A DNA stretch of 64,000 nucleotides. It comes from Verrucomicrobiales bacterium. GTDB lineage: Bacteria; Verrucomicrobiota; Verrucomicrobiia; Verrucomicrobiales; V1-33. The notes under the pieces are model-generated. The model worked only from the letters and a program-made list of their open reading frames with translations, made no database searches and was not told the DNA's origin. Of the stretch, positions 30,516 to 47,850 are shown one piece after another. Made by a program: the position numbers and the translations under genes. Position 1 is the first letter of the stretch, and the number at the start of each line of letters is the position of its first letter. Where the stretch lies: positions 200,357 to 264,356 of the forward strand of contig JBPCQC010000019.1 of the NCBI GenBank assembly GCA_050998515.1, given 5' to 3'.

Positions 30516-30577
30516 ACTGGAAACAGAAGTTGTTTGGTTGGAACGGCGGGCGGTTGTATGGTCGAGAACCAGAATCG

Positions 30578-31153
30578 ATGAACAGTCCCTCGGTCATCTA
30601 TGTGGCTTCGAGCGACGCGGGAGTTTTTGTGCGTGTCGTGGGCAAGGGCTGTTATCAAAACAGTCCGCCGTTGCGCCGGTTCATGCAACAACTGCTGCAG
30701 GAGGGCGCGGGCGATCTCTACGTCGATCTTGGCGCCTGCCGTGCCATGGACAGCACATTTCTGGGTGTCCTGGCCGGATTCGGTCTCGGTCTGCGGCGAT
30801 CCGCGCAACCGCATGGCACGCTCTGCCTCTTCAACGTCAATGACGCTCAATCTGCCTCGTTGCAAACGCTCGGACTGGATCGGCTCGCACAAATTGCGTG
30901 TGGCCGCCCACCGCTGGAGGCAGACCACGTACCCGCCGAGGCGCAGTATCACGTCCTGCCCGGCACAGAACTCACTGCCCAGGGCAGGCCGCAAAACAAA
31001 ATCGAATCGACCGAGTGCATGCTCGAAGCGCACGAAAATCTTTGCGCCGCCGATGAACGCAACCAGTCGAAGTTTGCCGACGTCACCCGCTTCCTGCGCC
31101 AGGAAATCACCGAGCAGCAGAAAAAAGCCGAAGAAAAACCAAGCTTGCCGTAA
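30578..31153 (+). CDS. STAS-domain protein (anti-sigma-factor-antagonist-like) with C-terminal extension
   Basis: ATG at 30578. The motif YVDLGACRAMDSTFLGVLAG resembles the phosphorylatable DSSG/DSTxLG motif of SpoIIAA/RsbV. It is transcribed divergently from the PP2C gene. The extra ~85 aa at the C-terminus are unassigned. Confidence 0.55.
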   Translation: MNSPSVIYVASSDAGVFVRVVGKGCYQNSPPLRRFMQQLLQEGAGDLYVDLGACRAMDSTFLGVLAGFGLGLRRSAQPHGTLCLFNVNDAQSASLQTLGLDRLAQIACGRPPLEADHVPAEAQYHVLPGTELTAQGRPQNKIESTECMLEAHENLCAADERNQSKFADVTRFLRQEITEQQKKAEEKPSLP

Positions 31154-31482
31154 CCGGCATCTATGTGCCTCATGGACTGGAGGTTGTCCATTCTCATGAA
31201 AACATCGGCTGTTACCCAACGACGAAACGAGCATCCGCCCCCCCGCAGATGCCTGCGCCTGCAGAATAACGCATCTTAACAACCTCTCTACTGGCATCGG
31301 CTGGCGTGCGGTAGCGAAGCTTGAACGTGCGGAACGACGCCTAGAAAGGACACTGACGCATTTTTCGTGTCCTTTACAAACGGCGGCAGATTGCCGGCCC
31401 ACAATTTGCCCTACAAACATGGTATGTAGGGGTTCGCCAGAGGCGAAGGAGGATTTCGCGGCTCAACGACGCGCTACTGGCT

Positions 31483-31638
31483 CCCGCACGTGTTCGGGCT
31501 TAGCGCCCGACTTCGCGCTTTTTCCTCCGGCTACCGGGTGTCTGCCATGACTAACCGTCAGTTGCGACCACCAAAAAGCGCGAAGTCGGCCGCTCAGACA
31601 CGGGGTAGCCGATGTCTTTCGCCCTTCACACGTGCGGG
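31483..31638. repeat. Nested and interleaved inverted repeats (possible structured RNA or element relic)
   Basis: A 10-bp inverted repeat pairs 31483-31492 with 31629-31638. A 17-bp perfect inverted repeat (CCGACTTCGCGCTTTTT) pairs 31507-31523 with 31573-31589. A 15/17 inverted repeat pairs 31528-31544 with 31595-31611 and is interleaved with the 17-bp pair. The region lies in a 750-nt gap with no convincing coding sequence. Confidence 0.5.
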
Positions 31639-31906
31639 GTCACGACTGCCTTCACATCACAACCAGTTCTATCACACCCAACTCCACCACGACGGCTTCG
31701 CCAATGCGAAGCCCGCACGTCCTCGTCCAAAAGGGCGAAGGCTGCGCAGCAGCCGGCGGACGACTTGCTTTGTAATAGCGCAGCTCACACCAAAATCGTG
31801 TGATCACGATACAAAAATGAGAGTTGGCACGAGTTCCTCTTGGCCCGTTAATCCGGCTACTTGAAAAACATCCAAGGAGCTGACCGGAGGCCGCGTCGGC
31901 AGCCCC

Positions 31907-32910
31907 ATGAATACGCGCGGTATCATCACGTCAATGACAACCTCAGAGAAATGTCTGGGACAGTTGAAAGTAACGAGCAATTCTCGACTAAGTTTCTGGG
32001 CTAAGACCGATTCGGATGGAAATCCCGGCACCACGGTTCGCGATCATTGCATTAATGTCGGATGCGTGGCAGAAGCGCTGCTCGGAGCACTTCCGGACAC
32101 CGTCCGCCCTCTGCTCCCGCCCGGTGCCGCCACGCTCGCAGCGCTCCATGATGCCGGGAAGATATCGCTCGGCTTTCAGGTGAAGTGCGCGGCGTGGATC
32201 GCGCGGAATGGACTCACGGAAACGGCGGTGCGGGAGCGATGGGCCTCGCCTCAGCAAGCTGAGAGCGATCATGCGAAAATCACGCAAGCGTTTTTGCAAG
32301 CTGCCATGAAGCCGCTGGGCGGCGCATCGGCTGATCGCCGCGGGCGTGAATGACGGCATCTATTTCGCGCTGCCCACGCAGGTTACGAGCAACCGCATCC
32401 ATGAGCGCGTCGCGCCCTTCCTGCGCGCGGCGCTCGAGGACTCGGCCACGCTGCGGCTCGCGCACGGCGCTTCGTGGCTTGAGGATTGTCAGACGCTGCG
32501 CCTGCATCCTGCGGCGCCGGGCGATCCGGATGCCAGCGAGCACGTCCGCGAAGGCCGCTCATGGTTTGCCTCGGCGAAGCATGCTCTGCTCGCGCGCTTC
32601 GGCGTCGGCACCGTCGATCAGGCGCTCCAGGGCGTCGTGGCGGTAAAGCACTTCTTCGTGCGCCGCTTCGGCCTCGCGGGGAAGGTCGTCATCCTCGATG
32701 AAGTCCACAGCTACGATGTCTATACCGGCACGCTCATCACGCGTCTCATTCGCGAGCTGCTCGCGTTGCGCTGCTCGGTCGTCGTCCTCTCCGCCACGCT
32801 GACGCGGGCGCGCCGCGCCGAGCTCATCGCCGCGGCAGACGCCGATCCCGGGAGCGCGCGCTCCGAGGCGTATCCGTTGCTCACCGTGGCGAGAGCGTGC
32901 GGAGTCCGCC
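31907..32910 (+). pseudogene. cas3: cas3 relic (type I-E): HD-domain start, frameshift, ~170-codon internal deletion, 3' truncation
   Basis: 31907-32353 encodes an HD-domain N-terminus (SFWAKTD...LAALHDAGKISLGFQ) that aligns with the intact Cas3. A second frame from ~32306 encodes helicase motifs (IYFALPTQVTSN..., VVILDEVHSYD, VVVLSATLT, YPLLTVA). The HHG residues and the Walker A (GEGKT) segment are missing, and similarity ends near 32904. Confidence 0.75.
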
Positions 32911-33039
32911 ATCGGCTTTCGGTCCCACGAGTTCGACGTCGTTTTGGAAGCGCGCGACGCGCGGCTGGTGAAAGATGGGGAGATCGACTCGCGGGGCGGA
33001 GGCCTTACCGACCCCGGCCCGCGCCGGCAGCGCCGGTTC

Positions 33040-33294
33040 TCACAAGGTTCGGCGGCGGCGCGAAGGATTGGCGCAGCCGCGCAGCACTTCCTCGAGCGGA
33101 ACTGTCAACCCGGCCGCGTGCTCTGCCACCGGCTCTTGGAAGAGTTTATCCAACGGGCCGCCGGGCCGGGCGTCCTCCTCCATCTCTGCGTCCCAAACGA
33201 ACTCCTGGCGCTCATCGAGCCACTTTGCCAGGCTCCAAAACTCTTTTCGCGGAAGCTCCTCGATGGCTTTCTGGATTGCGGCCAATGTGTTCAT
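33040..33294 (-). CDS. Small antitoxin-like protein (orphan)
   Basis: ATG at 33294 gives 84 aa, MNTLAAIQKAIEELPRKEFWSLAKWLDERQEFVWDAEMEEDARPGGPLDKLFQEPVAEHAAGLTVPLEEVL.... This is the pattern of a widespread small antitoxin-like family. It lies between the cas3 relic and the intact cas3, on the opposite strand. It corresponds to the 3' end of the artefactual 440-aa antisense ORF in the track. Confidence 0.5.
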   Translation of the reverse strand: MNTLAAIQKAIEELPRKEFWSLAKWLDERQEFVWDAEMEEDARPGGPLDKLFQEPVAEHAAGLTVPLEEVLRGCANPSRRRRTL

Positions 33295-33342
33295 GATCGC
33301 GACCCTATGTTCGCAGTCGCGGGCGCTCAAATCTGATCTGAA

Positions 33343-36093
33343 ATGGAATTGAACACTCCTCCATCCGCCGCTGACGATCCCGCTCCGTTCACGGACTACT
33401 TCTGGGCGAAGACGGATCCCATCACCGGTGCTCCGGCACGGACGGTCACGGAGCACTCTTTCCAGGCTGGAGCTGTGGCGGAGTGTCTTTGGGCGGTGCT
33501 TGGGGAGCCGGTGATCGCGCTGTTGCCGCGGGGCAGCGTGACGCTCGCGGCCTTGCACGATGTCGGGAAGCTGACGATCGGATTTCAGCTGCAGTGCGGA
33601 GTCTGGAAGCCGCCGGAAGCGATCCGCACGGCGATGGCCGGTGCGGCGGCGCGTGACTCGATTTCGCGGCACGCGACGCTTTCGCAACGCGATCTCGAAC
33701 TGCGGCTCGGCAAGGCGCGAGCGTGGGCGCGGGCTATCGGTGCGCATCATGGCGCGTTCACCGAAGGCGGGAAGCGGGAGGATTTGCGTGCGTTGTTCGA
33801 CCCGATCCGGGGTGCGCTGGTCGAGCGGATTGTGCAGAGATTCGGTGCGTTGCCGGTCGTCCCGCCGGCCACGGGGCGGGATGCGAAGGTGGCGCAACTT
33901 TGCTGCCTCGCGGGCTTCATCGTGCTCGTCGATTGGATCGCGTCCGATGAACGCAACTTTCCGCTCGCGGCCCCATCGCTTTTTAGCAGGCCATTTACGG
34001 GTCACGATCTGGAGCTCGCGGAGGAGAAAGCTCGTGAAGCGGTCGCGGCGCTGCGTCTCGCCGCACCTCGGTTGAAGGCTGGGTGTGCGTTCCAGGAGTA
34101 TGTCGGGAAGCCTCCCTATCCCTTGCAGGAAAAGGCTCTCGAACACATCGCCGGGCCAGGACTCTACATCGTCGAAGCGGCGATGGGTGAGGGGAAGACC
34201 GAGGCGGCGCTGGCGGCGGCGTATCGCAATATCGAGCGCGGTCTGGCCCGCGGATTTTACTTCGCGCTGCCCACGCAGCTCACCTCGAATGAAATCCACC
34301 GGCGCACGCGGGAGATTTTCTCGCGCCTGGTCGAAAGCGACGCGCCGATGCCGCTCGCGCATTCGGCTTCATGGCTCACCCAACCCGATCGCCTCATCCT
34401 GCATCCCGCAGTGCCTCAAGATGCCGATCAAGACGAGATCGAACAGGCGGTGCAGCATCTGCGCGCCGCTCGTGCCTGGCTCACGTCGCGCAAGGCGTTG
34501 CTGGCGCCATTCGGCGTGGGCACCATCGATCAGGCGCTGATGGCGACCCTTCCGGTGAAGTTTGCGCACCTGCGGCTCTTCGGCCTCGCGGGAAAGGTGA
34601 TCATCTTCGACGAAGTCCACAGCTACGACACCTACACGAGCGCGATTCTCGAGGCGCTGATTCGGCTGCTGCTGGAGTTGCACTGCACAGTCGTCGTCCT
34701 CTCGGCCACGCTCACCCGCCGGCAGCGCGATTGCCTGCTGCGAGCGGCGACCGACGTCGAGCCCGAATCGAAAGACGAGCGCTGGGAAAAATATCCGCTG
34801 CTCTCGATCGCGAGGAAGGGCGCTCCTCCCGAGCCGGTCACAATTGAGGAATCGAACGCGCGCAATCGGACCGTTCTTCTGACGCATGTCACGATGGCTG
34901 ATCCCTCGTTAAGCACCGACGTGCTCGCGACCATCGAGCAGCGGGTGAAAGAGAACTTTTGCGTGCTCATCATCCGCAACACCGTGGCTCTGGCGCAGGA
35001 GACATATCGTGAGGTGAAAGGACTGCTCAACGAAGCCGACGATGCAGAGCGCGTGGGCCTGCTGCACAGCCGCTATCCTTACTTCCAACGCTTCGGCCAT
35101 CCCGATCGCGCCGCCGATCGGGGACGCGAAGCGCGCTGGGTCGAGCGGCTCGGGAAAGAGCGCCAGCATCGGCCATCCGGGGGCTGTGTGCTGGTGGCGA
35201 CGCAAGTCGTCGAGCAGTCGGTGGACGTGGATGCCGACCTGCTCATCACCGATCTTTGTCCTACCGATCAGCTTCTCCAGCGCATCGGCCGGCTGCATCG
35301 CCACCCGGAACCGCGAACGCTGCTCGCGACGCGAGCGGAGGCGATCCTCTTGCATCCCGTGCTGCCGCAGCCGAGCGAAGCAGACCCCGCGGAATGGAAA
35401 CGAGCGCTCAAGCCGCACGGCAATCTGTATGCGCCGTATGTCTTGCTGCGGACAGAAGTGCTCTGGAGGAAAAACATCGCGATCAACTTGCCGCAAGACA
35501 TTCGCCCGCTGCTGGAGGCCACCTATGCGGCTCCAGCGGATGATGAACCCGCTGATTGGAGCACGCTTGCCGACGAGCTCCAAAAGCGCCGCGACACGCT
35601 GACGGCCAAGGCGCAAGCCTTCGCCAGCAGCCTTGGCAAACCGCCTGAGTCCGACGACGAAAACACGGCTCCGACGCGCTGGATCGACTGCCCGACTCTC
35701 GATCTCGTGCTCTTGCGGTCCCGCCCAGAGGTGCAGCCTGGTGGAAAGATCGAGCTGCACTTCCTCGACGGCGCGATCCTCCACTGGCACCCGCGGGCGG
35801 GTTGGGATCACGAGGTTGCACGCGCCGTTTTCATCAACAGCGTGCGCATCCCGGCCTATCTCTTTGCCAAGACCGAGGCCCCCGATTGGCTCCACACCCA
35901 CACGCACGGCCTGGCTGGCGCGGCTTGGAAAGCTGACCGCGGCACGCTCATGAACTGCGCCGACGGATCGACCCTGCCCTTGCGCTACTGCGACGCGGAA
36001 GGCGTGGTCGCGATCGGAAAAGCTGCCAAGACATCGTCTTTCCCGGGCGAGGCCGCCGAATTTCCCGAGGACGAGGAAGACGGTTTCAACTGA
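33343..36093 (+). CDS. cas3: Cas3 HD nuclease / DExH helicase, type I-E
   Basis: 916 aa. HD motifs are present (LAALHDVGK, IGAHHG). Helicase motifs are present (AAMGEGKT, IIFDEVHSY, VLSATL, QVVEQSVDVD, IGRLHR). It heads the cas operon. Confidence 0.92.
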   Translation: MELNTPPSAADDPAPFTDYFWAKTDPITGAPARTVTEHSFQAGAVAECLWAVLGEPVIALLPRGSVTLAALHDVGKLTIGFQLQCGVWKPPEAIRTAMAGAAARDSISRHATLSQRDLELRLGKARAWARAIGAHHGAFTEGGKREDLRALFDPIRGALVERIVQRFGALPVVPPATGRDAKVAQLCCLAGFIVLVDWIASDERNFPLAAPSLFSRPFTGHDLELAEEKAREAVAALRLAAPRLKAGCAFQEYVGKPPYPLQEKALEHIAGPGLYIVEAAMGEGKTEAALAAAYRNIERGLARGFYFALPTQLTSNEIHRRTREIFSRLVESDAPMPLAHSASWLTQPDRLILHPAVPQDADQDEIEQAVQHLRAARAWLTSRKALLAPFGVGTIDQALMATLPVKFAHLRLFGLAGKVIIFDEVHSYDTYTSAILEALIRLLLELHCTVVVLSATLTRRQRDCLLRAATDVEPESKDERWEKYPLLSIARKGAPPEPVTIEESNARNRTVLLTHVTMADPSLSTDVLATIEQRVKENFCVLIIRNTVALAQETYREVKGLLNEADDAERVGLLHSRYPYFQRFGHPDRAADRGREARWVERLGKERQHRPSGGCVLVATQVVEQSVDVDADLLITDLCPTDQLLQRIGRLHRHPEPRTLLATRAEAILLHPVLPQPSEADPAEWKRALKPHGNLYAPYVLLRTEVLWRKNIAINLPQDIRPLLEATYAAPADDEPADWSTLADELQKRRDTLTAKAQAFASSLGKPPESDDENTAPTRWIDCPTLDLVLLRSRPEVQPGGKIELHFLDGAILHWHPRAGWDHEVARAVFINSVRIPAYLFAKTEAPDWLHTHTHGLAGAAWKADRGTLMNCADGSTLPLRYCDAEGVVAIGKAAKTSSFPGEAAEFPEDEEDGFN

Positions 36094-36296
36094 GCAATCC
36101 CCCAGCGTTGGAGGAAAAACGTCATCTTCACACACAAACATGGACCATCCCTCCAACGTGAAGGGAACGCGCGATTGTGGTGCTCCCAGATCGAATCACA
36201 AGGGGATTTCGTAGCAATAGGTTCAGAAACTCATCTTTTTAATCTTTTCACAGAAACACTTTGACATAAATCCGCTACCCGCCAGTATCCAACCCG

Positions 36297-37889
36297 TTGC
36301 CGCCAACACCCGACCTCTTGAACGCCCCAGCCTCCTTCAATCTCGCCCAAGACCCTTGGATTCCCGTCCGGTTCCTCGATGGGACTTCCGACCTCGTCAG
36401 TCTGCGCGAGGCGTTCGCTCGGGGCCGCGCGATCCACGATCTCGCCGCTCGTCCGCACGAGCGGATCGCGCTCCTGCGGTTGCTCATCTGCATCGCTCAA
36501 GCGGCGCTGAATGGCCCCGATACGGACGACGCCGGCGAGTGGCGCGAGGCGGAGGAAGGGCTGCCGGATGCAGCGTCCAAGTATCTCGAAAAGTGGGCTG
36601 GCGCGTTCGCGCTCTTCGGCGAGGGCCCGCGGTTCTTGCAATTGCGCACGGCCAAAGCCGAGGAGACGGCAGCGAGCAAGCTCTTTCCTCCGCTGGCCTC
36701 CGGAAATAATCCCACGCTCTTCGATCATGCGGGCGGCGAGGAACGCGCGTTCGCTCCCGCGGCGCTCGCCCTTGGCTTGGTCAGCTTCCAGAATTTCTCC
36801 CCGCTCATTGGTCGCGGCTACACGGGCCGCGGCCCGTGCGTGGATCGTAATGCGCTCCATGTCTTCCGCATCGGCGCCAATCTCCTCGAGACGGTGCTGC
36901 TCAATGGCGTCAGCATCGAGCGGATCGAGGGCGACGGGCGCGGAAGTTTTGGGCGGCCGATTTGGGAGATGCCTCTTACCGATCCCGCCGGCGTGGACTC
37001 GGCCGCGGTGCGCAATGCCACCCGCACGTATCTCGGCCGGCTCGCCCCGCTCGCGCGTAGTGTGTGGCTGGCGGAGGATGGCCGCTCATTGGTGCTCGCG
37101 AATGGTCCGGATTACCCCGCCTTCAAAGTCGGCTGGAAAGAGCCGAGCGCGACCGAGGGCATTCGGCAGGAAAAGGAGCGCTACCTTCTCGGCGCATCGC
37201 TGGGGAGGGCGGTTTGGCGAGAGCTTCACGCGATCACCGTCGCGAACTCGGATGGCTTGGGGCGGGCGGCGACGCTCGCGCGCCAAGGGGAAGAGGAGGC
37301 GTGCTCGCTGTGGGCCGGCGGAATGGTGACCGATTTCAAAGCGAAGATAGAAGACGCTGTCGCCTCCCGGTTCCAAGGCGATCTCGCCGTGCCGGGAAAG
37401 CTGTTTTCGTCGGACACGTCGGCTCATCTCCACTATCACGGCGGCGTGCAGGCGGCGAACGCTTGGGAGAATGCTGCACGTTTCGCCGTCAAGCAATATG
37501 CTGACATCCTAAGCTCCCGAAACAGCGATAAGCCAACGACCGACCAGCGCACCACCGGTCTGCGCGATGCGGCCTCGGCATTTTTCTGGAACGAAGCGGA
37601 GCAACACCTCCGCGAGCTTTTTGCGCTCGTGAACGATCTCACGCTGCTCGGCGGCAAGGCCGCGCGCGATCCGTATGCGCCCACCGCCTGGCACCGGGCG
37701 TTGCGCCGCGCGGCGGCAGCAGCATTCGAGGCGGTCTGCCCGCAGGACAATGCCCGCCAGCACGAGGCTGCCGGGAAGGCGCGCGCTTTCTTGCGCGCGA
37801 AAAGTCTCGAATCGAAACCTGCGAGGCGCGGCGGCAGGTCGCGCGCTGCGAAAACCACTCCTGACCCAACTCCGTTGCCCCATGCCTGA
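36297..37889 (+). CDS. cas8e: Cse1/CasA (Cas8e), Cascade large subunit
   Basis: 530 aa. The N-terminal 'NLAQDPWIPVR' matches the CasA N-terminus (E. coli MNLLIDNWIPVR). Its position after cas3 fits. There is no in-frame ATG, so the start is TTG at 36297 or TTG at 36318. Confidence 0.85.
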   Translation: MPPTPDLLNAPASFNLAQDPWIPVRFLDGTSDLVSLREAFARGRAIHDLAARPHERIALLRLLICIAQAALNGPDTDDAGEWREAEEGLPDAASKYLEKWAGAFALFGEGPRFLQLRTAKAEETAASKLFPPLASGNNPTLFDHAGGEERAFAPAALALGLVSFQNFSPLIGRGYTGRGPCVDRNALHVFRIGANLLETVLLNGVSIERIEGDGRGSFGRPIWEMPLTDPAGVDSAAVRNATRTYLGRLAPLARSVWLAEDGRSLVLANGPDYPAFKVGWKEPSATEGIRQEKERYLLGASLGRAVWRELHAITVANSDGLGRAATLARQGEEEACSLWAGGMVTDFKAKIEDAVASRFQGDLAVPGKLFSSDTSAHLHYHGGVQAANAWENAARFAVKQYADILSSRNSDKPTTDQRTTGLRDAASAFFWNEAEQHLRELFALVNDLTLLGGKAARDPYAPTAWHRALRRAAAAAFEAVCPQDNARQHEAAGKARAFLRAKSLESKPARRGGRSRAAKTTPDPTPLPHA

Positions 37890-38442
37890 ACATCCGTTCC
37901 CTTTCCACGCCCTCTACCAGCTCACCGAGCGCAAAGGCCGCGACGGCCAGCCTCGTGATGACAAGGGCACCCGAGCCGCGCTGCGGCGCCTGCTTTCCGA
38001 CACGCGCCGGTCCAAGGCGGTGGGCTGGATGGCGCTTGGCGCGCTCGGCGCGGGAAGCTTTGCCGACGACCCCGTGGCGGAGACGGTCGCCGGCATTTAC
38101 GGGCTGCACCCGAAGCCGAGCCATGACAAGGAGTTCAACTTCGGCGCCACCTGCCGCAAGCTGCGCGAGAAGAAGAGCAAAGACTTCAGCGAGCCACATC
38201 CGTTCGACAATCACTTCCGCCGCCTCCTCGGCGCGCGCACGCAGGGCGACGCGTGCAAGGTGGTGCAGCGCATCGCGCGGATGGCGGAAGCCGAAGGCAT
38301 CGAGATCAATTTCGAGCGGCTTTTTTACGACCTGTGCAGATGGGAGGATGACTGGCCGCGCCGGAACTGGACGCGCGCCTATTTCCGAACCCCGCAGCCT
38401 GAGGACGACTCCGAAATCACCGCCCCCGCTGTCCATGAATGA
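37882..38442 (+). CDS. cas11: Cse2/CasB (Cas11), Cascade small subunit
   Basis: ATG at 37882 overlaps the cse1 3' end by 8 nt. It encodes a 186-aa helical Arg-rich protein (TRAALRRLLSD..., ...WTRAYF). Size and position are typical for Cse2. Confidence 0.8.
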   Translation: MPEHPFPFHALYQLTERKGRDGQPRDDKGTRAALRRLLSDTRRSKAVGWMALGALGAGSFADDPVAETVAGIYGLHPKPSHDKEFNFGATCRKLREKKSKDFSEPHPFDNHFRRLLGARTQGDACKVVQRIARMAEAEGIEINFERLFYDLCRWEDDWPRRNWTRAYFRTPQPEDDSEITAPAVHE

Positions 38443-39142
38443 GCGCCTCCATCTCGCTCGCGCGCTCGTCCCTTACGAAGTCGCCGTGAAGCGCGGCATG
38501 ACCGATCCTTACGCCTGGCATCAGCGCGCCTGGGATGCGTTCCCGAGCCGCGACCGGCAGCCGCGGGACTTCCTCACCCGGCTCGAAGAAAAGGACGACG
38601 TCCTCCAGCTCATGATCCTCTCGCCGACCCCGCCCGAGCGCCCCGGCTGGTGCCCTACCGACGGCTGGCAGGTAAAGCCGATCCCCGAGGATTTCCTCGG
38701 CCACGAGGAGTATGACTTCTCGCTGCTGGCGAACCCCACGCGCAAACTCGTGGTGCGCGACGAGGCCGGACAGCGCCGCAAGAATGGGCGGCGGATCGCC
38801 ATCACGCACCGCGAAGATCGGCCCGACACGAACGCGCCGGACCGCATGGCGCCGGGACTCCTCTCGTGGCTTCAGCGACACGGCATGGAAAATGGCTTCG
38901 CGATCGTGCCGGACCAGACGCGCACCATCCCGCAGCCCTTTCGTCGTTTTCATAAAGAGAAGCACACCGTCTCGCTTCACGCGGTGGACTTCCGCGGCCG
39001 ACTGCAGGTCACCGATCGCGCGCGCTTCCGCAGCATCTTCCACGGACGCCCCGATCCGGTGGACCCGGCGCGGCTCATCTACGGCTTGGGCCGCGCGAAG
39101 GGCTTCGGCTTTGGTCTGCTCGCCGTCGTCCCTGTTTCCTGA
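38435..39142 (+). CDS. cas6e: Cas6e (CasE/Cse3) crRNA endoribonuclease
   Basis: ATG at 38435 overlaps the cse2 3' end by 8 nt. 235 aa. The C-terminal glycine-rich loop 'GLGRAKGFGFGLL' is diagnostic of Cas6e. Confidence 0.85.
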   Translation: MNERLHLARALVPYEVAVKRGMTDPYAWHQRAWDAFPSRDRQPRDFLTRLEEKDDVLQLMILSPTPPERPGWCPTDGWQVKPIPEDFLGHEEYDFSLLANPTRKLVVRDEAGQRRKNGRRIAITHREDRPDTNAPDRMAPGLLSWLQRHGMENGFAIVPDQTRTIPQPFRRFHKEKHTVSLHAVDFRGRLQVTDRARFRSIFHGRPDPVDPARLIYGLGRAKGFGFGLLAVVPVS

Positions 39143-39195
39143 ATTTCCGAACGAACCTCCTCCAAACCAACTCACCCTAAGACCCACATCCACCC

Positions 39196-40248
39196 ATGAA
39201 ACTGCTGGAACTCCACATCCTCCAATCCTACCCCGTCACCTGCCTGAACCGGGACGACATCGGCTCGCCCAAATCGGCGGTCTTCGGCGGCTCCACCCGC
39301 GCCCGCATCAGCAGCCAGAGCCTGAAGCGCGCGATTCGCGAATACGCGCAGACCGTTTTCCCCTCGGCTGCCTTTGCGGGCCAGCGCTCGCGCTACCTCC
39401 TCGAACGATTCTCGAAAGCCATCGTCGCCGCCGGGCTCGCGGAGCCGGAAGCGACGAAGAAAGCCGAGGAACTCGCCGCCATCTTCAGCAGCCTGCAGGA
39501 TCCAAAGGAGCGGCAAAAATCCGGCGATGTGACCACCGCCGTCTTCCTCTCGCCGGCCGAGATCGAGCAGCTCGCGCGCGTTGCCGCCGATGGAGGCGAC
39601 CTCGCCAAAGCCGCGCGCAAGGTCACCCGGCTCGATGCCGCCGACATCGCGCTTTTCGGACGGATGGTCGCGAACGACTCATCGCTCAATGTCGAAGGCG
39701 CGAGTCTGTTTTCCCACGCCATCTCCACCCACCGGTGCGACAACGACACCGACTTCTTCTCCGCCATCGACGACGTGAAACGCGCCGCCGTTGGCACCAC
39801 CGATGCCGGCGCCGGAATGATTGGCAACATCGACTTCAACTCCGCCTGCTACTACCGCTACTGCGCGCTCAACCTCGACGAACTCGCCCGCCCCACGCAT
39901 CTCGGCGGCCTCTCGCAGGAGCAGCGCCGCGCAGTCGTCGATGCCTTTCTCCGTGCCACGCTCCAGGCGATTCCCGCCGCCCGCAAGCACTCGATGAACG
40001 GGCACACCCTGCCCGGCTACGCGCTCGGCATTTACAAGGCGGCCGGCCAGCCGCTGCAGCTCGTAAATGCTTTCGAGAAGCCGGTAACAACTCGGGGGGA
40101 GGGCTACCTCGAGGGTTCGCGTGAGCGGCTGACCGAGCACCACCGCGAGCTCAAGGACACTTGGGGATTGAAGAACGATCTCGAACTCGAACTGCCGGGC
40201 CTGACCCTCGACGGTTTCATCACGCAACTCGTCACCCACGTCCCATGA
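39196..40248 (+). CDS. cas7: Cas7e (CasC/Cse4), Cascade backbone subunit
   Basis: 350 aa. The N-terminus MKLLELHILQSYPVTCLNRDDIGSPKSAVFGGSTRARISSQSLKRAIR closely parallels E. coli CasC. Confidence 0.9.
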   Translation: MKLLELHILQSYPVTCLNRDDIGSPKSAVFGGSTRARISSQSLKRAIREYAQTVFPSAAFAGQRSRYLLERFSKAIVAAGLAEPEATKKAEELAAIFSSLQDPKERQKSGDVTTAVFLSPAEIEQLARVAADGGDLAKAARKVTRLDAADIALFGRMVANDSSLNVEGASLFSHAISTHRCDNDTDFFSAIDDVKRAAVGTTDAGAGMIGNIDFNSACYYRYCALNLDELARPTHLGGLSQEQRRAVVDAFLRATLQAIPAARKHSMNGHTLPGYALGIYKAAGQPLQLVNAFEKPVTTRGEGYLEGSRERLTEHHRELKDTWGLKNDLELELPGLTLDGFITQLVTHVP

Positions 40249-40997
40249 ACAGCGCCACACTCGCAGTGGTCCTCGACGCTCCGCTGCAAAGCTGGGGCCA
40301 CGCCTCCCAATTCCAGCACCGCACGACTGCCGCGCACCCGACCAAGAGCGGCGTGCTCGGCCTCGTCGCCGCCGCGCTCGGCATCGACCGCAACGCATCC
40401 GATGAAGCCGACCTTCTCGTGCCTTTCGCCGCGCTGCATTTTACCAGCCTGCGCGTGCCGCGGCCCCACCCCCGGCGCAACGAGCGGCTGCTTCCCGTCC
40501 TGCGGCTCGAGGATTACCACACCGTCGGCGGCGGCTACGATGAAGACGACCCTCGCGAGCGACTCTGCATCCCGCGCAAGGCGGAGCGTGGCGGCGTCTT
40601 TGGCACCGTCGTCACCCGTCGCACCTATCTTCAGCAAGCGCGGTTCATCATTTTCATGGAAGGCTACCGCGCCAGCATTGATCGCATCGCGACGGCTCTT
40701 CAGAACCCCGTATGGGGTGTCTGGCTGGGCCGCAAGAGCTGTGTCCCTGCCGTGCCCGTCCAGCCCGTCATTGCCGAGAGCCGCGCGTCGGCCCTCGTAA
40801 TTTTGCTGCGCCGCATCCGCTATCCGCAGCCGGACGCGCCGGAGACGGACTTTGATCGCGAGGAGACCGCGACCGACGCTTCGCAAGCTCACCATTTCCT
40901 GGCAGACCAGCCGCTCGGTTACGGCAGTCGGCAATTCTCGCACCGTGGCATCACAGTCCATCGCGCGCCCAGACCAGCCCCGGGAAGTGGGGAATGA
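40245..40997 (+). CDS. cas5: Cas5e (CasD)
   Basis: ATG at 40245 overlaps the cas7 stop (ATGA). The N-terminus MNSATLAVVLDAPLQSWGHASQFQHRTTAAHPTKSGVLGLVAAALGIDR parallels E. coli CasD. Confidence 0.85.
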   Translation: MNSATLAVVLDAPLQSWGHASQFQHRTTAAHPTKSGVLGLVAAALGIDRNASDEADLLVPFAALHFTSLRVPRPHPRRNERLLPVLRLEDYHTVGGGYDEDDPRERLCIPRKAERGGVFGTVVTRRTYLQQARFIIFMEGYRASIDRIATALQNPVWGVWLGRKSCVPAVPVQPVIAESRASALVILLRRIRYPQPDAPETDFDREETATDASQAHHFLADQPLGYGSRQFSHRGITVHRAPRPAPGSGE

Positions 40998-41332
40998 CCG
41001 GTTGCACGGATGATGCCCGTTTTCTATCCTCTGCCGCCATGATTCCTTCCCGCCACGTCCTGCTCGAACGCCTGCGCGCGGCGATGCCGGCGCTGGCCGG
41101 GGAGTTCCCGCTGCGACGCATGGCGCTGTTCGGCTCCGTGGCGCGCGGGGATGCCACCGAGGCGAGCGACATCGACATCCTCGTGGATGTGGACCCGCGG
41201 ATCGGGCTCGGGTTTGTGACGCTCGCGGAGCGTCTGGAGCAGTTGCTGGGGCACAAGGTGGACCTGGTGTCGCGCCGCGCCGTGAAGCCTTCGCTCTGGA
41301 AGCAGATCGAACCGGAGCTGCTGGATGTCTAA
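40994..41332 (+). CDS. mntA: MntA-type minimal nucleotidyltransferase antitoxin (HEPN/MNT module)
   Basis: Carries the NTase motif LFGSVARGDATEASDIDILVD. ATG at 40994 overlaps the cas5e TGA (ATGA); an alternative ATG at 41039 would give a 97-aa product. It overlaps hepT by 8 nt. Confidence 0.8.
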   Translation: MTGCTDDARFLSSAAMIPSRHVLLERLRAAMPALAGEFPLRRMALFGSVARGDATEASDIDILVDVDPRIGLGFVTLAERLEQLLGHKVDLVSRRAVKPSLWKQIEPELLDV

Positions 41333-41657
41333 ACGCGATCCCGCCCTTCTCCTCGAGGACATGCGCGCGGCGCTGGAGAAGATCGCCCGCTACACGGCGG
41401 GGATGCAACGCGCGGCCTTCCTCGCGGATGAGAAGACGGTGGACGCCGTGGTCCGCAATCTGGAGATCATCGGCGAGGCCTCGAAACAGGTGCCGGAGGA
41501 ATTCAAGGCGCTGCATCCCGCCCTGCCGTGGTCGCAGATGGCCGGGCTCCGCAACCGGATCGTGCATGATTACGCCGGGATCGATCTGGAATTGATCTGG
41601 GACATCGTCGGGAACTCGCTGCCCGCCCTGCGCGGGCAGTTGGACGGTCTGGCGTAA
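41325..41657 (+). CDS. hepT: HepT-type HEPN (DUF86) toxin
   Basis: 110 aa. The HEPN Rx4H motif is in the typical context (MAGLRNRIVHDYAGIDLELIWDIV). The gene is downstream of and overlapping the MNT gene. Confidence 0.85.
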   Translation: MSKRDPALLLEDMRAALEKIARYTAGMQRAAFLADEKTVDAVVRNLEIIGEASKQVPEEFKALHPALPWSQMAGLRNRIVHDYAGIDLELIWDIVGNSLPALRGQLDGLA

Positions 41658-41680
41658 AACCGACGGTCTTATTCCTCCGC

Positions 41681-41715
41681 TCAATCCTAAATCCTAAATC
41701 TGAAATCCTAAATCC
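41681..41715 (+). repeat. Five tandem G-poor heptanucleotide repeats (TCAATCC TAAATCC TAAATCT GAAATCC TAAATCC) ending 2 nt before the cas1 ATG
   Basis: Read directly from the sequence. The period is exactly 7 nt, and the repeats occupy most of the 60-nt hepT-cas1 spacer. Confidence 0.8.
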
Positions 41716-41717
41716 AG

Positions 41718-42605
41718 ATGCCCCTCTTCGAACGCCCGCCGCTGGAAACCCTCGCCTCGGCGAAGGATCGCTGGACGCCGCTTTACCTCGAGCACGGGCG
41801 GCTCGAGGTGGATGACTCGAGCGTCAAATGGATCGGCGCCGATGGCCTGCTCTGCCGCATCCCGGTCGCCACCGTCTCCGCGCTCATCCTCGGGCCGGGC
41901 ACCACCATCACGCACGCGGCGGTGCGGGCCTGCGCGGAATCGAACACGCCGCTGTGCTGGACTGGCGCGGATTGCCTGCGCTTCTACGCCTTTGGCCTCA
42001 CCCCGAATCACACCAATGACATGCCCCGGCTCCACGCCGAGGCCTGGGCCGACAAACGCCGCCGCACGCAGATTGCCCGGCGCATGTTCGCGATGCGCTT
42101 TCCCGATGTGGACGTGGAGGGCCGGTCCGTGAAGGAGCTCCGCGGCATGGAAGGGCTCCGCGTGCGCGCACTCTACAGCCAGCTCGGCCTCGAGCACGGC
42201 GTCACCTGGAAAGGGCGCAACTACGACCGCACGAACTGGGATATTTCCGATTCGATCAACCGCGCCCTCTCTGCTGCCAACGCGAGTCTTTACTCCCTCG
42301 TCGCCGCCGTCGTCTGCTCGCTCGGCTACGTGCCGAGTCTCGGCTTTGTGCATGACGCGGGCACGCTCCCGTTCATCTACGACGTGGCCGATCTGTATAA
42401 GCATCTCACGAGCATCCCCGCCGCCTTCCTCGCCGCGCGGCAGGATCCCGCCGACGAAGGCGAACTCGTGCGCACTTTGCTCAAAGAGCGCGTCGAGGAG
42501 CACCGCATCCTCCAGCGCATTCCCAAGGACCTCGCCGCGCTCTTCGATACCGCCGAAGCCGCGCCTGCCTCCGCGACCAGCCGCCCGCCTTCGGCGACTG
42601 CGTAA
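41718..42605 (+). CDS. cas1: Cas1e integrase
   Basis: 295 aa. It can be aligned by eye along its length with E. coli Cas1 (LYLEHGRLEVDD..., GPGTTITHAAVRA..., ELRGMEGLRVRALY..., GFVHDAGTLPFIYDVADLYK). Confidence 0.9.
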   Translation: MPLFERPPLETLASAKDRWTPLYLEHGRLEVDDSSVKWIGADGLLCRIPVATVSALILGPGTTITHAAVRACAESNTPLCWTGADCLRFYAFGLTPNHTNDMPRLHAEAWADKRRRTQIARRMFAMRFPDVDVEGRSVKELRGMEGLRVRALYSQLGLEHGVTWKGRNYDRTNWDISDSINRALSAANASLYSLVAAVVCSLGYVPSLGFVHDAGTLPFIYDVADLYKHLTSIPAAFLAARQDPADEGELVRTLLKERVEEHRILQRIPKDLAALFDTAEAAPASATSRPPSATA

Positions 42606-42617
42606 TCTCTCCGTCAC

Positions 42618-42645
42618 TCAACACTCAACTTTCAACTCTCAACCC
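42618..42645 (+). repeat. Four tandem G-free heptanucleotide repeats (TCAACAC TCAACTT TCAACTC TCAACCC) in the cas1-cas2 spacer
   Basis: Read directly from the sequence. The period is exactly 7 nt. A 7-nt CTTCCCT follows, then the cas2 GTG at 42653. Confidence 0.8.
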
Positions 42646-42652
42646 CTTCCCT

Positions 42653-42952
42653 GTGACCGTCATCGTCGCCCACGACACGCCGCCCGCCATCCGCGGGATG
42701 CTCAAGCGCTGGTTCATCGAGCCGCAGCCCAACGTCTTCGTCGGCACGCTGACCCGGCGCACGCGTGACAAGACGCTCGACTACATCAAGCGCAACGCCG
42801 CCGGCATCGCGCTGCTGATGATCTCGTCCGAACCCAACTGCCAGGGCTTCAAAATCGAGATTCACGGCGAAGTGCGCCGGCGCGACGCGCAGCTCTCCGG
42901 CCTGTGGCTGGTGGCGGAGAAGTGGGTGGAAGCCGAAAACCTGCCTTTCTGA
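42653..42952 (+). CDS. cas2: Cas2e
   Basis: 99 aa with a GTG start. MTVIVAHDTPPAIRGMLKRWFIEPQPNVFVGTLTRRTRDK parallels E. coli Cas2 ([32 protein letters not shown]...). Confidence 0.85.
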   Translation: MTVIVAHDTPPAIRGMLKRWFIEPQPNVFVGTLTRRTRDKTLDYIKRNAAGIALLMISSEPNCQGFKIEIHGEVRRRDAQLSGLWLVAEKWVEAENLPF

Positions 42953-43001
42953 TTTGCGGCAGAACGCAAGAATCGCGAACGTAAGCCGTTGGCAATCCAG
43001 A
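42953..43001 (+). promoter_or_regulatory. CRISPR leader (only 49 nt between the cas2 stop and the first repeat)
   Basis: It is on the cas-proximal side of the array, while the degenerate and SNP-bearing repeats lie at the opposite end. Its leader role is inferred. No promoter boxes were identified confidently. Confidence 0.5.
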
Positions 43002-46000
43002 GTTCTCCCCACCCGCGTGGGGATGGTCCGACCGTCTCTCATGACACCATAGCCGTCAAGCTGTTCTCCCCACCCGCGTGGGGATGGTCCGCTCATCAGC
43101 AAACCGCGTCGAATAATCATACAGTTCTCCCCACCCGCGTGGGGATGGTCCGGCGGAGCGCACCGGGTAAGCCAGCTCTTCTTTGTTCTCCCCACCCGCG
43201 TGGGGATGGTCCGCCACTGACGTTGTTGAGCGCGCCACGCAGGCCGTTCTCCCCACCCGCGTGGGGATGGTCCGCGCATCCCAGGCGTCCGGATCGCGCG
43301 TGCGGGGTTCTCCCCACCCGCGTGGGGATGGTCCGGTTTCGAGCTGGGGCAATCTGCAGCCGGTCTCGTTCTCCCCACCCGCGTGGGGATGGTCCGTGGA
43401 TCGTCGCACCGTTTGCAATCGCATGGCTGTTCTCCCCACCCGCGTGGGGATGGTCCGGATTCCCGATCCGGCGCGCTGGGGTAATTTCAGTTCTCCCCAC
43501 CCGCGTGGGGATGGTCCGCTGGTCGAGCTTCTGAATAACGAACTGCGCATGTTCTCCCCACCCGCGTGGGGATGGTCCGTATGTCGCACTCTATGCGAGA
43601 TTTATTTTGCGGTTCTCCCCACCCGCGTGGGGATGGTCCGCGCTGTTCCGTCGGCGGCTTTGGCTTTCAGTTGTTCTCCCCACCCGCGTGGGGATGGTCC
43701 GGGTGGATGGACCGGCGATTTCATCGCGACACCGTTCTCCCCACCCGCGTGGGGATGGTCCGCCGGGTGTGGGCGCTCGACTGGATGATGATGTGTTCTC
43801 CCCACCCGCGTGGGGATGGTCCGCGGCGCCGGCCGCGGTCTCCGGGCAGCGGAAAGTTCTCCCCACCCGCGTGGGGATGGTCCGCAATGTTAATCGAAGG
43901 CGTTGATGAGAACGAGGTTCTCCCCACCCGCGTGGGGATGGTCCGCGGCTCTCGCTTAAGGCTGGTGCTTGGGCAGCGTTCTCCCCACCCGCGTGGGGAT
44001 GGTCCGGGTAGGGGCTGAGCTGCCCCCGGCCCCTTCCTGTTCTCCCCACCCGCGTGGGGATGGTCCGGACATCGGAGAGCGCGTCATCGATGAGAAGGGG
44101 TTCTCCCCACCCGCGTGGGGATGGTCCGATCCTCGAGCAGGAAGGCCTCACGCTGCCGAAGTTCTCCCCACCCGCGTGGGGATGGTCCGCGCTTTTGGAT
44201 GTTGCCGTGGATATCGAGGATGTTCTCCCCACCCGCGTGGGGATGGTCCGACATGGTGGCTCACCACGGTTACCTTCCGCTAGTTCTCCCCACCCGCGTG
44301 GGGATGGTCCGTTATTCGACGATGGAGCGTCTTGGTAGATTTTGTTCTCCCCACCCGCGTGGGGATGGTCCGGGCAACCGCATCCTCGTGCGCAAACAGG
44401 CAACGTTCTCCCCACCCGCGTGGGGATGGTCCGAAATGACTCAGGCTCCTAACTTCGCACGCACCGTTCTCCCCACCCGCGTGGGGATGGTCCGGGGCCG
44501 GTGGAGGTGAATGAGAAGACGGTGGAGTTCTCCCCACCCGCGTGGGGATGGTCCGGTAAAATCCAGAGCGACTGCCATGTAGTTGTTGTTCTCCCCACCC
44601 GCGTGGGGATGGTCCGCGCAGCATCAGCCACAACGAGATTGTGACGGTGTTCTCCCCACCCGCGTGGGGATGGTCCGCATATTTTCTGGCAGTGGGTGTG
44701 CTCATGGGCGTTCTCCCCACCCGCGTGGGGATGGTCCGTGACAGTGGAAACAGAGGATGAGGACGTGCTGGTTCTCCCCACCCGCGTGGGGATGGTCCGT
44801 CCTCGTCGCTGTCGGCCATCTTTACCAGGTAGTTCTCCCCACCCGCGTGGGGATGGTCCGCCCTTCTTGCGCACGCGCTTCATTTCGCGCGAGTTCTCCC
44901 CACCCGCGTGGGGATGGTCCGGGCAGCAACTGGTCGGAGTTACCACCGGAAAGGTTCTCCCCACCCGCGTGGGGATGGTCCGATCGAGATCGCCGCGGCC
45001 AAGGTCCGTAATGGGTTCTCCCCACCCGCGTGGGGATGGTCCGGCGCGCGGCACCAAGGTGGCAGATGGCTCCACGTTCTCCCCACCCGCGTGGGGATGG
45101 TCCGTCGGCGGCGGCGATGGCTTCATTGAGCAGGAGGTTCTCCCCACCCGCGTGGGGATGGTCCGGAATCGAGGAATTGATGCGCCAGGTTGCGGACGTT
45201 CTCCCCACCCGCGTGGGGATGGTCCGAATGGTGAGGACCTGGCTGAGCGTTTGGCGCAGTTCTCCCCACCCGCGTGGGGATGGTCCGGGATTCGGGAAGC
45301 CATCGTCATGCACCACGAGGTTCTCCCCACCCGCGTGGGGATGGTCCGCAAACGTTCGCGGCGCAGGAGCGCGTCTTTTAGTTCTCCCCACCCGCGTGGG
45401 GATGGTCCGACCTCGCGCGGGGCCATCAGGCGCGGGCGGCAGTTCTCCCCACCCGCGTGGGGATGGTCCGGTGGTGGATGTGCCTGCCGCTCCGGGCGCT
45501 CCGTTCTCCCCACCCGCGTGGGGATGGTCCGCAATCCCGCGGCGGAGAGGCACAACAGCAGTTGTTCTCCCCACCCGCGTGGGGATGGTCCGATGGCGCG
45601 CTCCCCGGGGCGGTCGATATCATCGTTCTCCCCACCCGCGTGGGGATGGTCCGTCTTCCTCGCTGTCCGCCATCTTCACCAGGTAGTTCTCCCCACCCGC
45701 GTGGGGATGGTCCGTGGGCGAGTTCAAGCCGCCGTTTCCACTGCGGGTTCTCCCCACCCGCGTGGGGATGGTCCGAAATGGAGGCGAGCATGAGTAAAAA
45801 CAACGGCGTTCTCCCCACCCGCGTGGGGATGGTCCGGACGTCATGAAGGAGCAGTGACCCGGCGTTCTGTTCTCCCCACCCGCGTGGGGATGGTCCGCAA
45901 ACCAACTCAGCAAAGACCAATCAAACGCCGTTCTCCCCACCCGCGTGGGGATGGTCCGACTCGAGGCGCCCTTCTGGCCATCGCCCCTGAGTTCTCCCCA

Positions 46001-47848: not shown

Positions 47849-47850
47849 CG

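Follow-up and report, generated by a model that had tools for sequence, protein, structure and literature searches.

A cas3 relic and an orphan antitoxin-like gene beside a type I-E CRISPR-Cas operon of a Verrucomicrobiales bacterium: probable traces of an effector-module replacement

We analysed a 64-kb stretch of DNA (hereafter the window) from a 284-kb contig of a Verrucomicrobiales metagenome-assembled genome (MAG), which holds a complete type I-E CRISPR-Cas system at positions 33343–47787, consisting of cas3, cse1, cse2, cas6e, cas7, cas5, cas1, cas2 and an array of 29-nt repeats. Completeness was judged from Pfam matches for Cas3, Cse1 and Cas6e, tblastn matches for all genes and the presence of 79 repeats. 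Directly upstream of the intact cas3 lie a degraded second cas3 and, between the two on the opposite strand, a short open reading frame (ORF). The first-pass annotation, made from the letters of this DNA alone, had read this arrangement as an older type I-E locus that was destroyed and replaced at the same site by an incoming cas operon, with a toxin–antitoxin (TA) cassette involved at the junction. The features of the locus are as follows.

31907–32308, plus strand: cas3 relic, HD-domain N-terminal part (ORF 31907–32353; Pfam Cas3_HD, 1e-10)
32308–32316, plus strand: joint within the relic, with a change of frame and ~171 codons lost (Cas3 residues 113–283, including HHG and Walker A)
32316–32912, plus strand: cas3 relic, helicase part with motifs Ia, DEVH and SAT (NCBIfam PRK09694, 4.5e-36)
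32913–33039, no strand: 127-bp spacer from the relic end to the stop codon of the antitoxin gene, without blastn or tblastx match in the fetched loci
33040–33294, minus strand: putative orphan antitoxin, 84 aa, with a helical core and a basic C-terminal tail
33295–33414, no strand: 48-bp divergent spacer and first ~24 cas3 codons (leader MELNTPPSAADDPAPFTDY followed by FWAKT), conserved jointly with the antitoxin gene
33343–36093, plus strand: intact type I-E cas3, 916 aa (Pfam Cas3_HD, DEAD and Cas3-like_C_2)
36297–40997, plus strand: cse1, cse2, cas6e (38447–39139), cas7 and cas5 (Pfam Cse1, CRISPR_assoc), the putative incoming effector module
40994–41657, plus strand: MNT antitoxin (40994–41332; NTP_transf_2, 6.8e-12) and HepT toxin (41325–41657; HepT-like, 1.2e-31)
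41718–42952, plus strand: cas1 and cas2, the adaptation module probably kept from the old locus
43002–47787, plus strand: CRISPR array, 79 repeats of 29 nt with spacers of 31–32 nt

The upstream copy is a fragment of a Cas3 gene in two pieces. Its 148-aa ORF at 31907–32353 had been taken for the N-terminus of a Cas3 HD domain, and the Pfam match bears this out, covering profile positions 1–112 of 207 only. Similarity to Cas3 starts at the FWAKT codons (31994), and both LAALHDAGK and the H-D motif are present. This part is 52% identical to residues 20–88 of the intact Cas3 (E = 3e-20) and 59% identical to residues 12–112 of the Cas3 of comparison locus L006, where the alignment stops before HHG; without HHG and the later HD motifs, the HD nuclease domain is incomplete. 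A tblastn search with the L006 Cas3 returned two segments of the relic in different frames, matching residues 12–112 and then 284–486 (32316–32912). Relative to L006, the ~171 codons missing at the joint include both HHG and Walker A, in agreement with the earlier description of a frameshift near 32306 and a loss of ~170 codons with Walker A among them; the homologous interval in L028 measures 472 nt. One detail of that description was a misreading: the AAG that it had placed at the position of HHG belongs to the helicase sequence RLIAAGVNDG (KLIASGANHG in L006), and HHG itself is deleted.

The helicase part keeps IYFALPTQ (motif Ia), DEVH (motif II) and SAT (motif III), and is 54% identical to residues 304–491 of the intact Cas3 (E = 2e-54). 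Similarity to Cas3 ends at ~32912, close to the 32904 of the first-pass annotation and equivalent to codon ~486 of ~900, and the last ~415 codons are gone. No match to Cas3-like_C_2 or Helicase_C was found in the relic, which lacks the second RecA-like domain and the C-terminal domain. With no single ORF and no Walker A, it falls short of what a superfamily 2 (SF2) helicase core requires. From its sequence, the stretch 31907–32912 is a cas3 pseudogene, non-functional through the absence of HHG, Walker A and the C-terminal half. At the nucleotide level, relic and intact cas3 match only in short patches, 226 nt at 75% and 58 nt at 78% identity, too little for an assembly duplicate. Both segments are thus Cas3-like without being nearly identical to the neighbouring gene, and their 52–54% protein identity to it and their place in a different clade agree with the earlier view that the relic, about half identical to the intact Cas3, is no recent tandem duplicate. 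Self-targeting was tested as a cause of the deletions by comparing the 78 spacers with relic, antitoxin gene and cas3, which gave chance matches of 12–18 nt only. The stretch 32913–33039 showed no toxin or Cas3 similarity, and blastn and tblastx searches with the 127-bp spacer (tested as 32905–33045) against all fetched loci gave no match.

The intact operon and the relic belong to different lineages. We compared the window gene by gene with other type I-E loci, among which L030 is the locus that surrounds P0257, the protein most closely related to the intact Cas3. The L028 assembly has many frame errors, and ORFs of L028 and L029 are often split; only their aligned blocks were used. Identity to L030 exceeded identity to L006 for the cas3 body (55% versus 37%, with 55–56% to P0255-57), cse1 (60% versus 38%), cse2 (48% versus 33%), cas6e (65% versus 43%), cas7 (68% versus 51%) and cas5 (53% versus 42%). 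The order was reversed for cas1 (66% to L030, 88% to L006) and for the relic helicase part (51% to L030, 66% to L006, 72% to L028 and 71% to L029); cas2 is 75% identical to L006, the L030 locus ending within cas1 and not covering cas2. At the nucleotide level, L028 was matched by the relic helicase part with 83.8% identity (591 nt, to the L028 cas3) and by cas1 with 86.8% (858 nt, in an alignment that opens precisely on the start codon of cas1 at 41718), whereas the genes between relic and cas1 can be aligned to L028 only in patches of 67–74%. The relic helicase part and cas1 have the same synonymous divergence (dS) from L006, 0.95, with cas2 at 0.79, and the CRISPR repeat equals that of L006 in 29 of 29 nt. 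A neighbour-joining tree of the helicase fragment grouped the relic with L028, L006 and L029 (bootstrap 98/100) and the intact cas3 with L030 and P0255-57 (100/100), which are the different donors that the first-pass annotation had expected of a Cas3 tree.

Since relic, cas1–cas2 and repeat are of the L006/L028 lineage and cas3 to cas5 are L030-like, only the effector module, ~32913–41717, appears to have been swapped. The alignments place the left breakpoint of this segment at ~32913 and the right one at ~41.7 kb, between HepT and cas1. The idea of an older type I-E locus replaced at this site therefore survives in part: the relic has the look of its remains, while cas1–cas2 and the repeats are kept and only the stretch from mid-cas3 to cas5 is exchanged. 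A right breakpoint had been looked for at 47.85 kb, where we find the array end and a shift in GC content only. GC content goes up inside the relic and comes down past the array, which marks the CRISPR region as a whole, not the swap. The MNT–HepT pair lies between cas5 and cas1 on the operon strand, just before homology to the old lineage (L006, L028) resumes at 41718. Its two ORFs overlap and RNRIVH (R-x4-H) is present, as in HEPN-MNT pairs. No match to MNT or HepT was found in the seven loci searched (L006, L013, L022, L028, L029, L030 and L005).

The reverse ORF between the two cas3 copies is intact and encodes 84 aa. The protein had been called antitoxin-like, a label that is upheld by its more distant homologues, which precede toxins of the family PF24732. 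It had no match in Pfam and NCBIfam at E up to 10, and for its family a Pfam search with 45 members, a PDB profile search and Foldseek against PDB gave none. A word-indexed search returned nine close homologues only; a profile search returned 1372 cluster representatives, typically of 66–75 aa, none with a Pfam, PDB or Foldseek assignment. AlphaFold2 gave four helices at a predicted local distance difference test score (pLDDT) of 76, and the predicted fold contains no recognisable DNA-binding domain. An alignment-based scan of genome and metagenome contigs identified 23 loci, in which the named genomes are all Verrucomicrobiota. In the more distant group, 46–58% identical to the window protein, a gene of ~85 aa directly follows the antitoxin gene; this partner occurs in 16 loci (L006-9, L014-20, L022 and L024-27) and is a ParE_like protein (PF24732) above cutoff in L024 and L027 (2.6e-11 and 3.4e-9), with weaker matches in two others. 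A ParE-like toxin directly after the distant homologues identifies the family, by neighbourhood, as antitoxins.

The closer group, at 59–80% identity and including the window, has no toxin and forms one clade. Its ratio of nonsynonymous to synonymous divergence (dN/dS) is 0.09–0.26, with dS at or near saturation. The C-terminal tail is variable yet consistently basic in this clade, and the DARPGGPLD core is invariant across the orphan and toxin-linked clades. No toxin similarity was detected by tblastn downstream of the window antitoxin gene or elsewhere in the window, and with no cognate toxin adjacent or in the window the gene is an orphan. A faint ParE/RelE-like C-terminal trace that had been reported at 32880–33039 found no support: tblastn with the family toxin gave E > 1 on the minus strand, and a permissive search with the L022 toxin (word size 2, E up to 10) matched nothing on that strand of the interval. 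A single toxin-less clade under such constraint, with saturated dS, points to a long-lived orphan antitoxin. The window gene would thus descend from a two-gene ParE-like TA cassette whose toxin is gone, the antitoxin staying under apparent purifying selection. For its present role, our best guess, held at less than even odds, is neutralisation of related incoming ParE-like toxins; control of the divergent cas3 promoter comes second and is more doubtful. The search for inverted or direct repeats of transposon or att-site type flanking the antitoxin gene gave short, chance-level matches only.

Complete cassettes of this family also sit at other positions of type I-E loci. In L006 (4251–4705) and L022 (3350–3813), antitoxin and ParE-like toxin genes lie between cas6e and cas7 on the opposite strand of an otherwise intact operon, without a duplicated 5' end of the neighbouring gene, and L023 has an antitoxin/ParE-like cassette beside cas2.

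Conservation of the orphan antitoxin gene extends into the start of cas3. The window shares 67–81% nucleotide identity with L010, L011, L005, L001 and L012 over a stretch made up of the antitoxin gene, the 48-bp spacer and the opening ~24 codons of cas3, and this homology breaks off at the FWAKT codons. The leader peptide MELNTPPSAADDPAPFTDY is common to the window, L005, L001, L010 and L012, while the closest relatives of the window Cas3 body have unrelated leaders. A block leader on an L030-type body that elsewhere carries other leaders makes the intact cas3 a chimera of leader and body, with FWAKT as the joint. L012 also breaks at FWAKT, and L010 probably does too. The 5' region of cas3 is 83–93% identical at the nucleotide level across lineages. 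What had been seen as a TA cassette at the junction is therefore half right: the ORF is antitoxin-derived, as proposed, and it is not a chance gene of one junction, being conserved as one block with the beginning of cas3 in an architecture shared by 10 other contigs.

That architecture recurs throughout the orphan clade. In all 11 of its contigs with usable flanks (the window, L001 (with L002 and L003), L004, L005, L010, L011, L012, L013, L031, L032 and L033), the antitoxin gene is convergent with the 5' relic of an older cas3. These outer relics start at FWAKT and are cut at different points, namely codon ~49, 58, 81, 89–91, ~140–170 and, in the window, 486. On the opposite side of the antitoxin gene stands a full cas3 in the window, L005, L013, L032 and L033, a decayed cas3 in L001, L004 and L031, and a cas3 leader remnant only in L010, L011 and L012. 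Outer and inner copies are of different insertion–deletion types within L001, L004 and L013 and so are not local duplicates. Gene conversion between an outer relic and its own inner cas3 was considered and rejected on the same ground, and the copies are not mutual best matches. Differences between relics at the three codon positions are 0.10/0.13/0.44, against 0.13/0.08/0.37 between functional copies; divergence mainly at third positions implies that each relic was a working gene until recently. An old antitoxin clade combined with coding-type divergence of the relics indicates that the relics are young and formed independently, each from a working cas3. No sequence conserved upstream of the relics or in the relic leaders was found among the loci compared. 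L030 has an old-type cas3 relic of 33 aa directly upstream of its own L030-type cas3, without an antitoxin gene. Taken with the 11 contigs, this makes effector replacement that leaves the old cas3 5' end a repeated outcome, with the antitoxin block as a frequent companion.

Individual loci show further details of this region. In L030 (245–880), a divergent 66-aa gene and a gene with an XRE-type helix-turn-helix (HTH) domain lie upstream of cas3, followed by a 46-codon ORF that corresponds to an old-type cas3 N-terminus and whose stop codon overlaps the start codon of the intact cas3. In L004 (16–126), the C-terminal fragment of a ParE-like toxin abuts, convergently, an inner cas3 cut at about residue 134; the nested scars of L004 suggest two successive take-overs in one locus. 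L012 (2750–3400) is a ghost locus with a cas3 5' relic, the orphan antitoxin gene and a cas3 leader up to FWAK, with no cas genes left. There, a spacer-length stretch and a degenerate CRISPR repeat follow directly on FWAK, with a second repeat inverted, a junction that indicates deletion of the whole locus. L001 (8000–10400) is a collapsed type I-E locus with a cas3 HD fragment in which HD is mutated to RH and with short cas5 and cas1 fragments only; a Phd/PIN pair is inserted, and PLD-SNF2, KilA-N and MmeI-type methyltransferase genes adjoin. A Phd/PIN pair also follows cas5 in L029.

Taken together, we consider it probable, at roughly three in four, that the relic is the 5' half of an older cas3 of the L028/L006/L029 type and that the effector module was exchanged by recombination with the adaptation module kept. 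An L028/L006/L029-type I-E locus would once have occupied the site. Recombination would then have replaced ~8.8 kb (~32913–41717), removing the old genes from mid-cas3 through cas5 and bringing in cas3, cse1, cse2, cas6e, cas7 and cas5 of an L030/P0255-like lineage, in a segment with the reverse antitoxin gene at its left end and the MNT–HepT pair at its right end. The promoter-proximal half of the old cas3, cas1–cas2 and the CRISPR array would have been left in place, and the relic would afterwards have lost ~0.5 kb internally. The foreign module may have arrived with a TA cassette at its edge that favoured retention of the newcomer; the toxin would have been lost later, and the antitoxin may have persisted by neutralising related toxins or by controlling the promoter region that it shares with cas3. 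Which part is resident, and with it the direction of the exchange, we infer by parsimony, relic and cas1–cas2 being of one lineage. That the old cas3 5' end is always kept could have two causes: its conserved stretch is a possible landing or crossover region, and the old promoter could possibly drive the new operon.

A wider extension of this history is tentative and, in our estimate, rather improbable. The antitoxin and cas3-leader block would form the front of an effector cassette that propagates itself, and Verrucomicrobiota type I-E modules would repeatedly overwrite residents by recombining in cas3, preferentially between FWAKT and VAEAL. A ParE-like TA pair would guard the cassette at first, a fresh cas3 5' relic would be the signature of a take-over, and the antitoxin would then immunise the winner against a later toxin-bearing cassette or control the expression of cas3.

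Several observations weigh against the preferred history. The two halves of the relic differ in GC content at third codon positions (GC3), 0.65 for the HD part (31994–32308) versus 0.84 for the helicase part (32316–32912), and the HD part is 72–73% identical to L028 in patches of ~100 nt, below the 83.8% of the helicase part. The relic may thus itself be composite, and its joint could be a recombination joint instead of a simple deletion. The leader/body chimerism of the intact cas3 shows that recombination took place at least twice. The assignment of the 84-aa protein as an antitoxin derives solely from gene neighbourhood in relatives, with no Pfam, NCBIfam, PDB or Foldseek match, and nearly all comparison loci are metagenomic contigs. 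No syntenic genome with an unswapped ancestral locus was found, the flanks of the locus (SpoIIE/STAS, with the STAS gene at 30530–31153, and the DMFA2-like gene at 47851–49329) not having been searched in relatives.

Among the alternatives, we regard as unlikely that the intact operon is the resident and that the relic came with the antitoxin gene. On this account, a cassette consisting of a 3'-truncated cas3 5' fragment, the antitoxin gene and a cas3 leader would have entered by a single Campbell-type (ends-in) crossover in the cas3 5' region, duplicating it and swapping the leader without killing cas3. The presence of cas3 5' sequence in direct orientation on both sides of the antitoxin block in 11 contigs would follow from such an insertion, as would the exchange of the window leader exactly at FWAKT, where L012 and probably L010 break too; the 83–93% identity of the cas3 5' region is enough for homologous pairing. 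Against this, the window relic reaches as far as codon ~486, and it shares with cas1–cas2 and the repeats its lineage, its nucleotide identity to L028 (84% versus 87%) and its dS from L006 (0.95 versus 0.95). One would not expect such agreement with the resident adaptation module from a fragment borne on a cassette. Beyond FWAKT, relic and intact gene are just 52–54% identical, and a free or circular form of the cassette was not seen.

We judge it comparably improbable that the relic–antitoxin unit is kept as a working device, in which the old cas3 promoter or 5' end drives or tunes the new operon, or in which the antitoxin transcript, running antisense into a cas3-like fragment, pairs with cas3 mRNA, the antitoxin being a recruited cas3 regulator. 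The retention of the 5' end from FWAKT to DHCL in every orphan locus, down to 22 codons, speaks for this, as do the 48–150 bp that always separate the antitoxin gene from a cas3 start, the purifying selection on this gene and its basic tail, and the overlap of the 46-codon relic ORF of L030 with the start of the new cas3. In L013 and L005, the outer fragment is 85–90% identical to the locus's own inner cas3 over 52–141 nt; in the window, however, the two copies share 78% over 58 nt only, which is poor for antisense pairing, and the outer fragments of L001 and L004 best match something other than their own inner cas3. The coding-type divergence of the relics, concentrated at third positions, gives no sign of constraint at the nucleotide level, no sigma-70-like promoter was found in 31300–33500, and the predicted antitoxin fold lacks a recognisable DNA-binding domain.

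A chimeric contig joining the type I-E loci of two strains is very unlikely. The source is indeed a 284-kb MAG contig, and CRISPR loci are hard to assemble, but an internal deletion sets the relic apart, its 127-bp spacer and its upstream region are both unique, the junctions lie outside repeated sequence, and 10 further contigs, from different samples and assemblers, show the same three parts in the same arrangement. Least credible of all is that cas3 was duplicated locally in tandem and that the upstream copy then diverged and decayed. Two cas3-like sequences in the same orientation 0.4 kb apart would speak for it, but the copies share 52–54% of residues and at most 78% of nucleotides in short patches, the tree puts them in different, well-supported Cas3 clades, and the relic is much closer to the cas3 of other genomes (84% of nucleotides to L028) than to its neighbour.

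Replacement of an effector module fits a known process. Module shuffling is mostly inferred from incongruent trees, and its mechanism is rarely visible. Adaptation and effector modules of CRISPR-Cas systems have independent histories and are shuffled (Koonin and Makarova 2019, PMC6452270), and as in those cases the nearest relatives of the effector part of the window locus, cas3 to cas5, are not those of its adaptation part, cas1–cas2 and repeats. Unlike the usual cases, the window keeps a scar: half of the cas3 of the displaced module, both breakpoints located to within ~100 bp and TA genes at both ends.

TA genes in cas loci and orphan antitoxins are known as well. The window protein resembles type II TA systems of the ParE family (PF24732) in being homologous to antitoxins directly before ParE-like toxins; unlike known ParE antitoxins, its family has no Pfam, NCBIfam or PDB representative, and a basic tail was acquired in the orphan clade. 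Chromosomal antitoxins of the orphan or 'anti-addiction' kind have been reviewed (PMC7354431), and like the proposed anti-addiction orphans the window antitoxin stands alone under purifying selection; unlike known orphan antitoxins, its clade is tied to one position, back-to-back with the cas3 start. CreTA is a CRISPR-regulated RNA toxin–antitoxin that guards cascade genes (PMC9458426; reviewed in PMC12737573). CreTA and the window element are both addiction-type modules in or beside a type I cas operon that likely make the cas module hard to lose. CreTA is RNA-based and needs an ectopic CRISPR-like repeat and Cascade, whereas the window element is a protein antitoxin with its toxin gone and no ectopic repeat; none was found outside 42900–48000 when both strands of the window were searched for 29-mers with up to 8 mismatches. 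Both inside and near CRISPR-cas loci and defence islands, protein TA genes have also been described (Makarova et al. 2012, PMC3506569), and comparable TA pairs inside type I-E operons are MNT-HepT in the window, ParE-like pairs in L006 and L022 and Phd/PIN pairs in L001 and L029. The fixed trio of an old cas3 5' relic, an orphan antitoxin gene and a new cas3, recurring across genomes, goes beyond these cases.

We found no literature report of a preserved scar with both breakpoints, of an antitoxin family without Pfam entry fixed back-to-back with cas3, or of an independently recurring relic–antitoxin–cas3 arrangement. In the window, the breakpoints, the remains of the displaced gene and the kept adaptation module can be read directly. 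The TA genes at both ends of the segment, together with independent recurrence in at least nine or ten other lineages, suggest that modules are replaced regularly, possibly with the help of addiction, through crossovers that favour one region of cas3, and that a toxin-less antitoxin family, so far uncharacterised, plays a lasting part next to cas3.

Rfam had no match in the window, and terminator-like sites in 31300–33500 were at chance level. Within the ~750 bp of non-coding DNA that separate the STAS gene from the relic lies a 25-nt inverted repeat (arms 31499–31523 and 31573–31597, 92% complementary, 49 nt between them), one arm of which is terminator-like.

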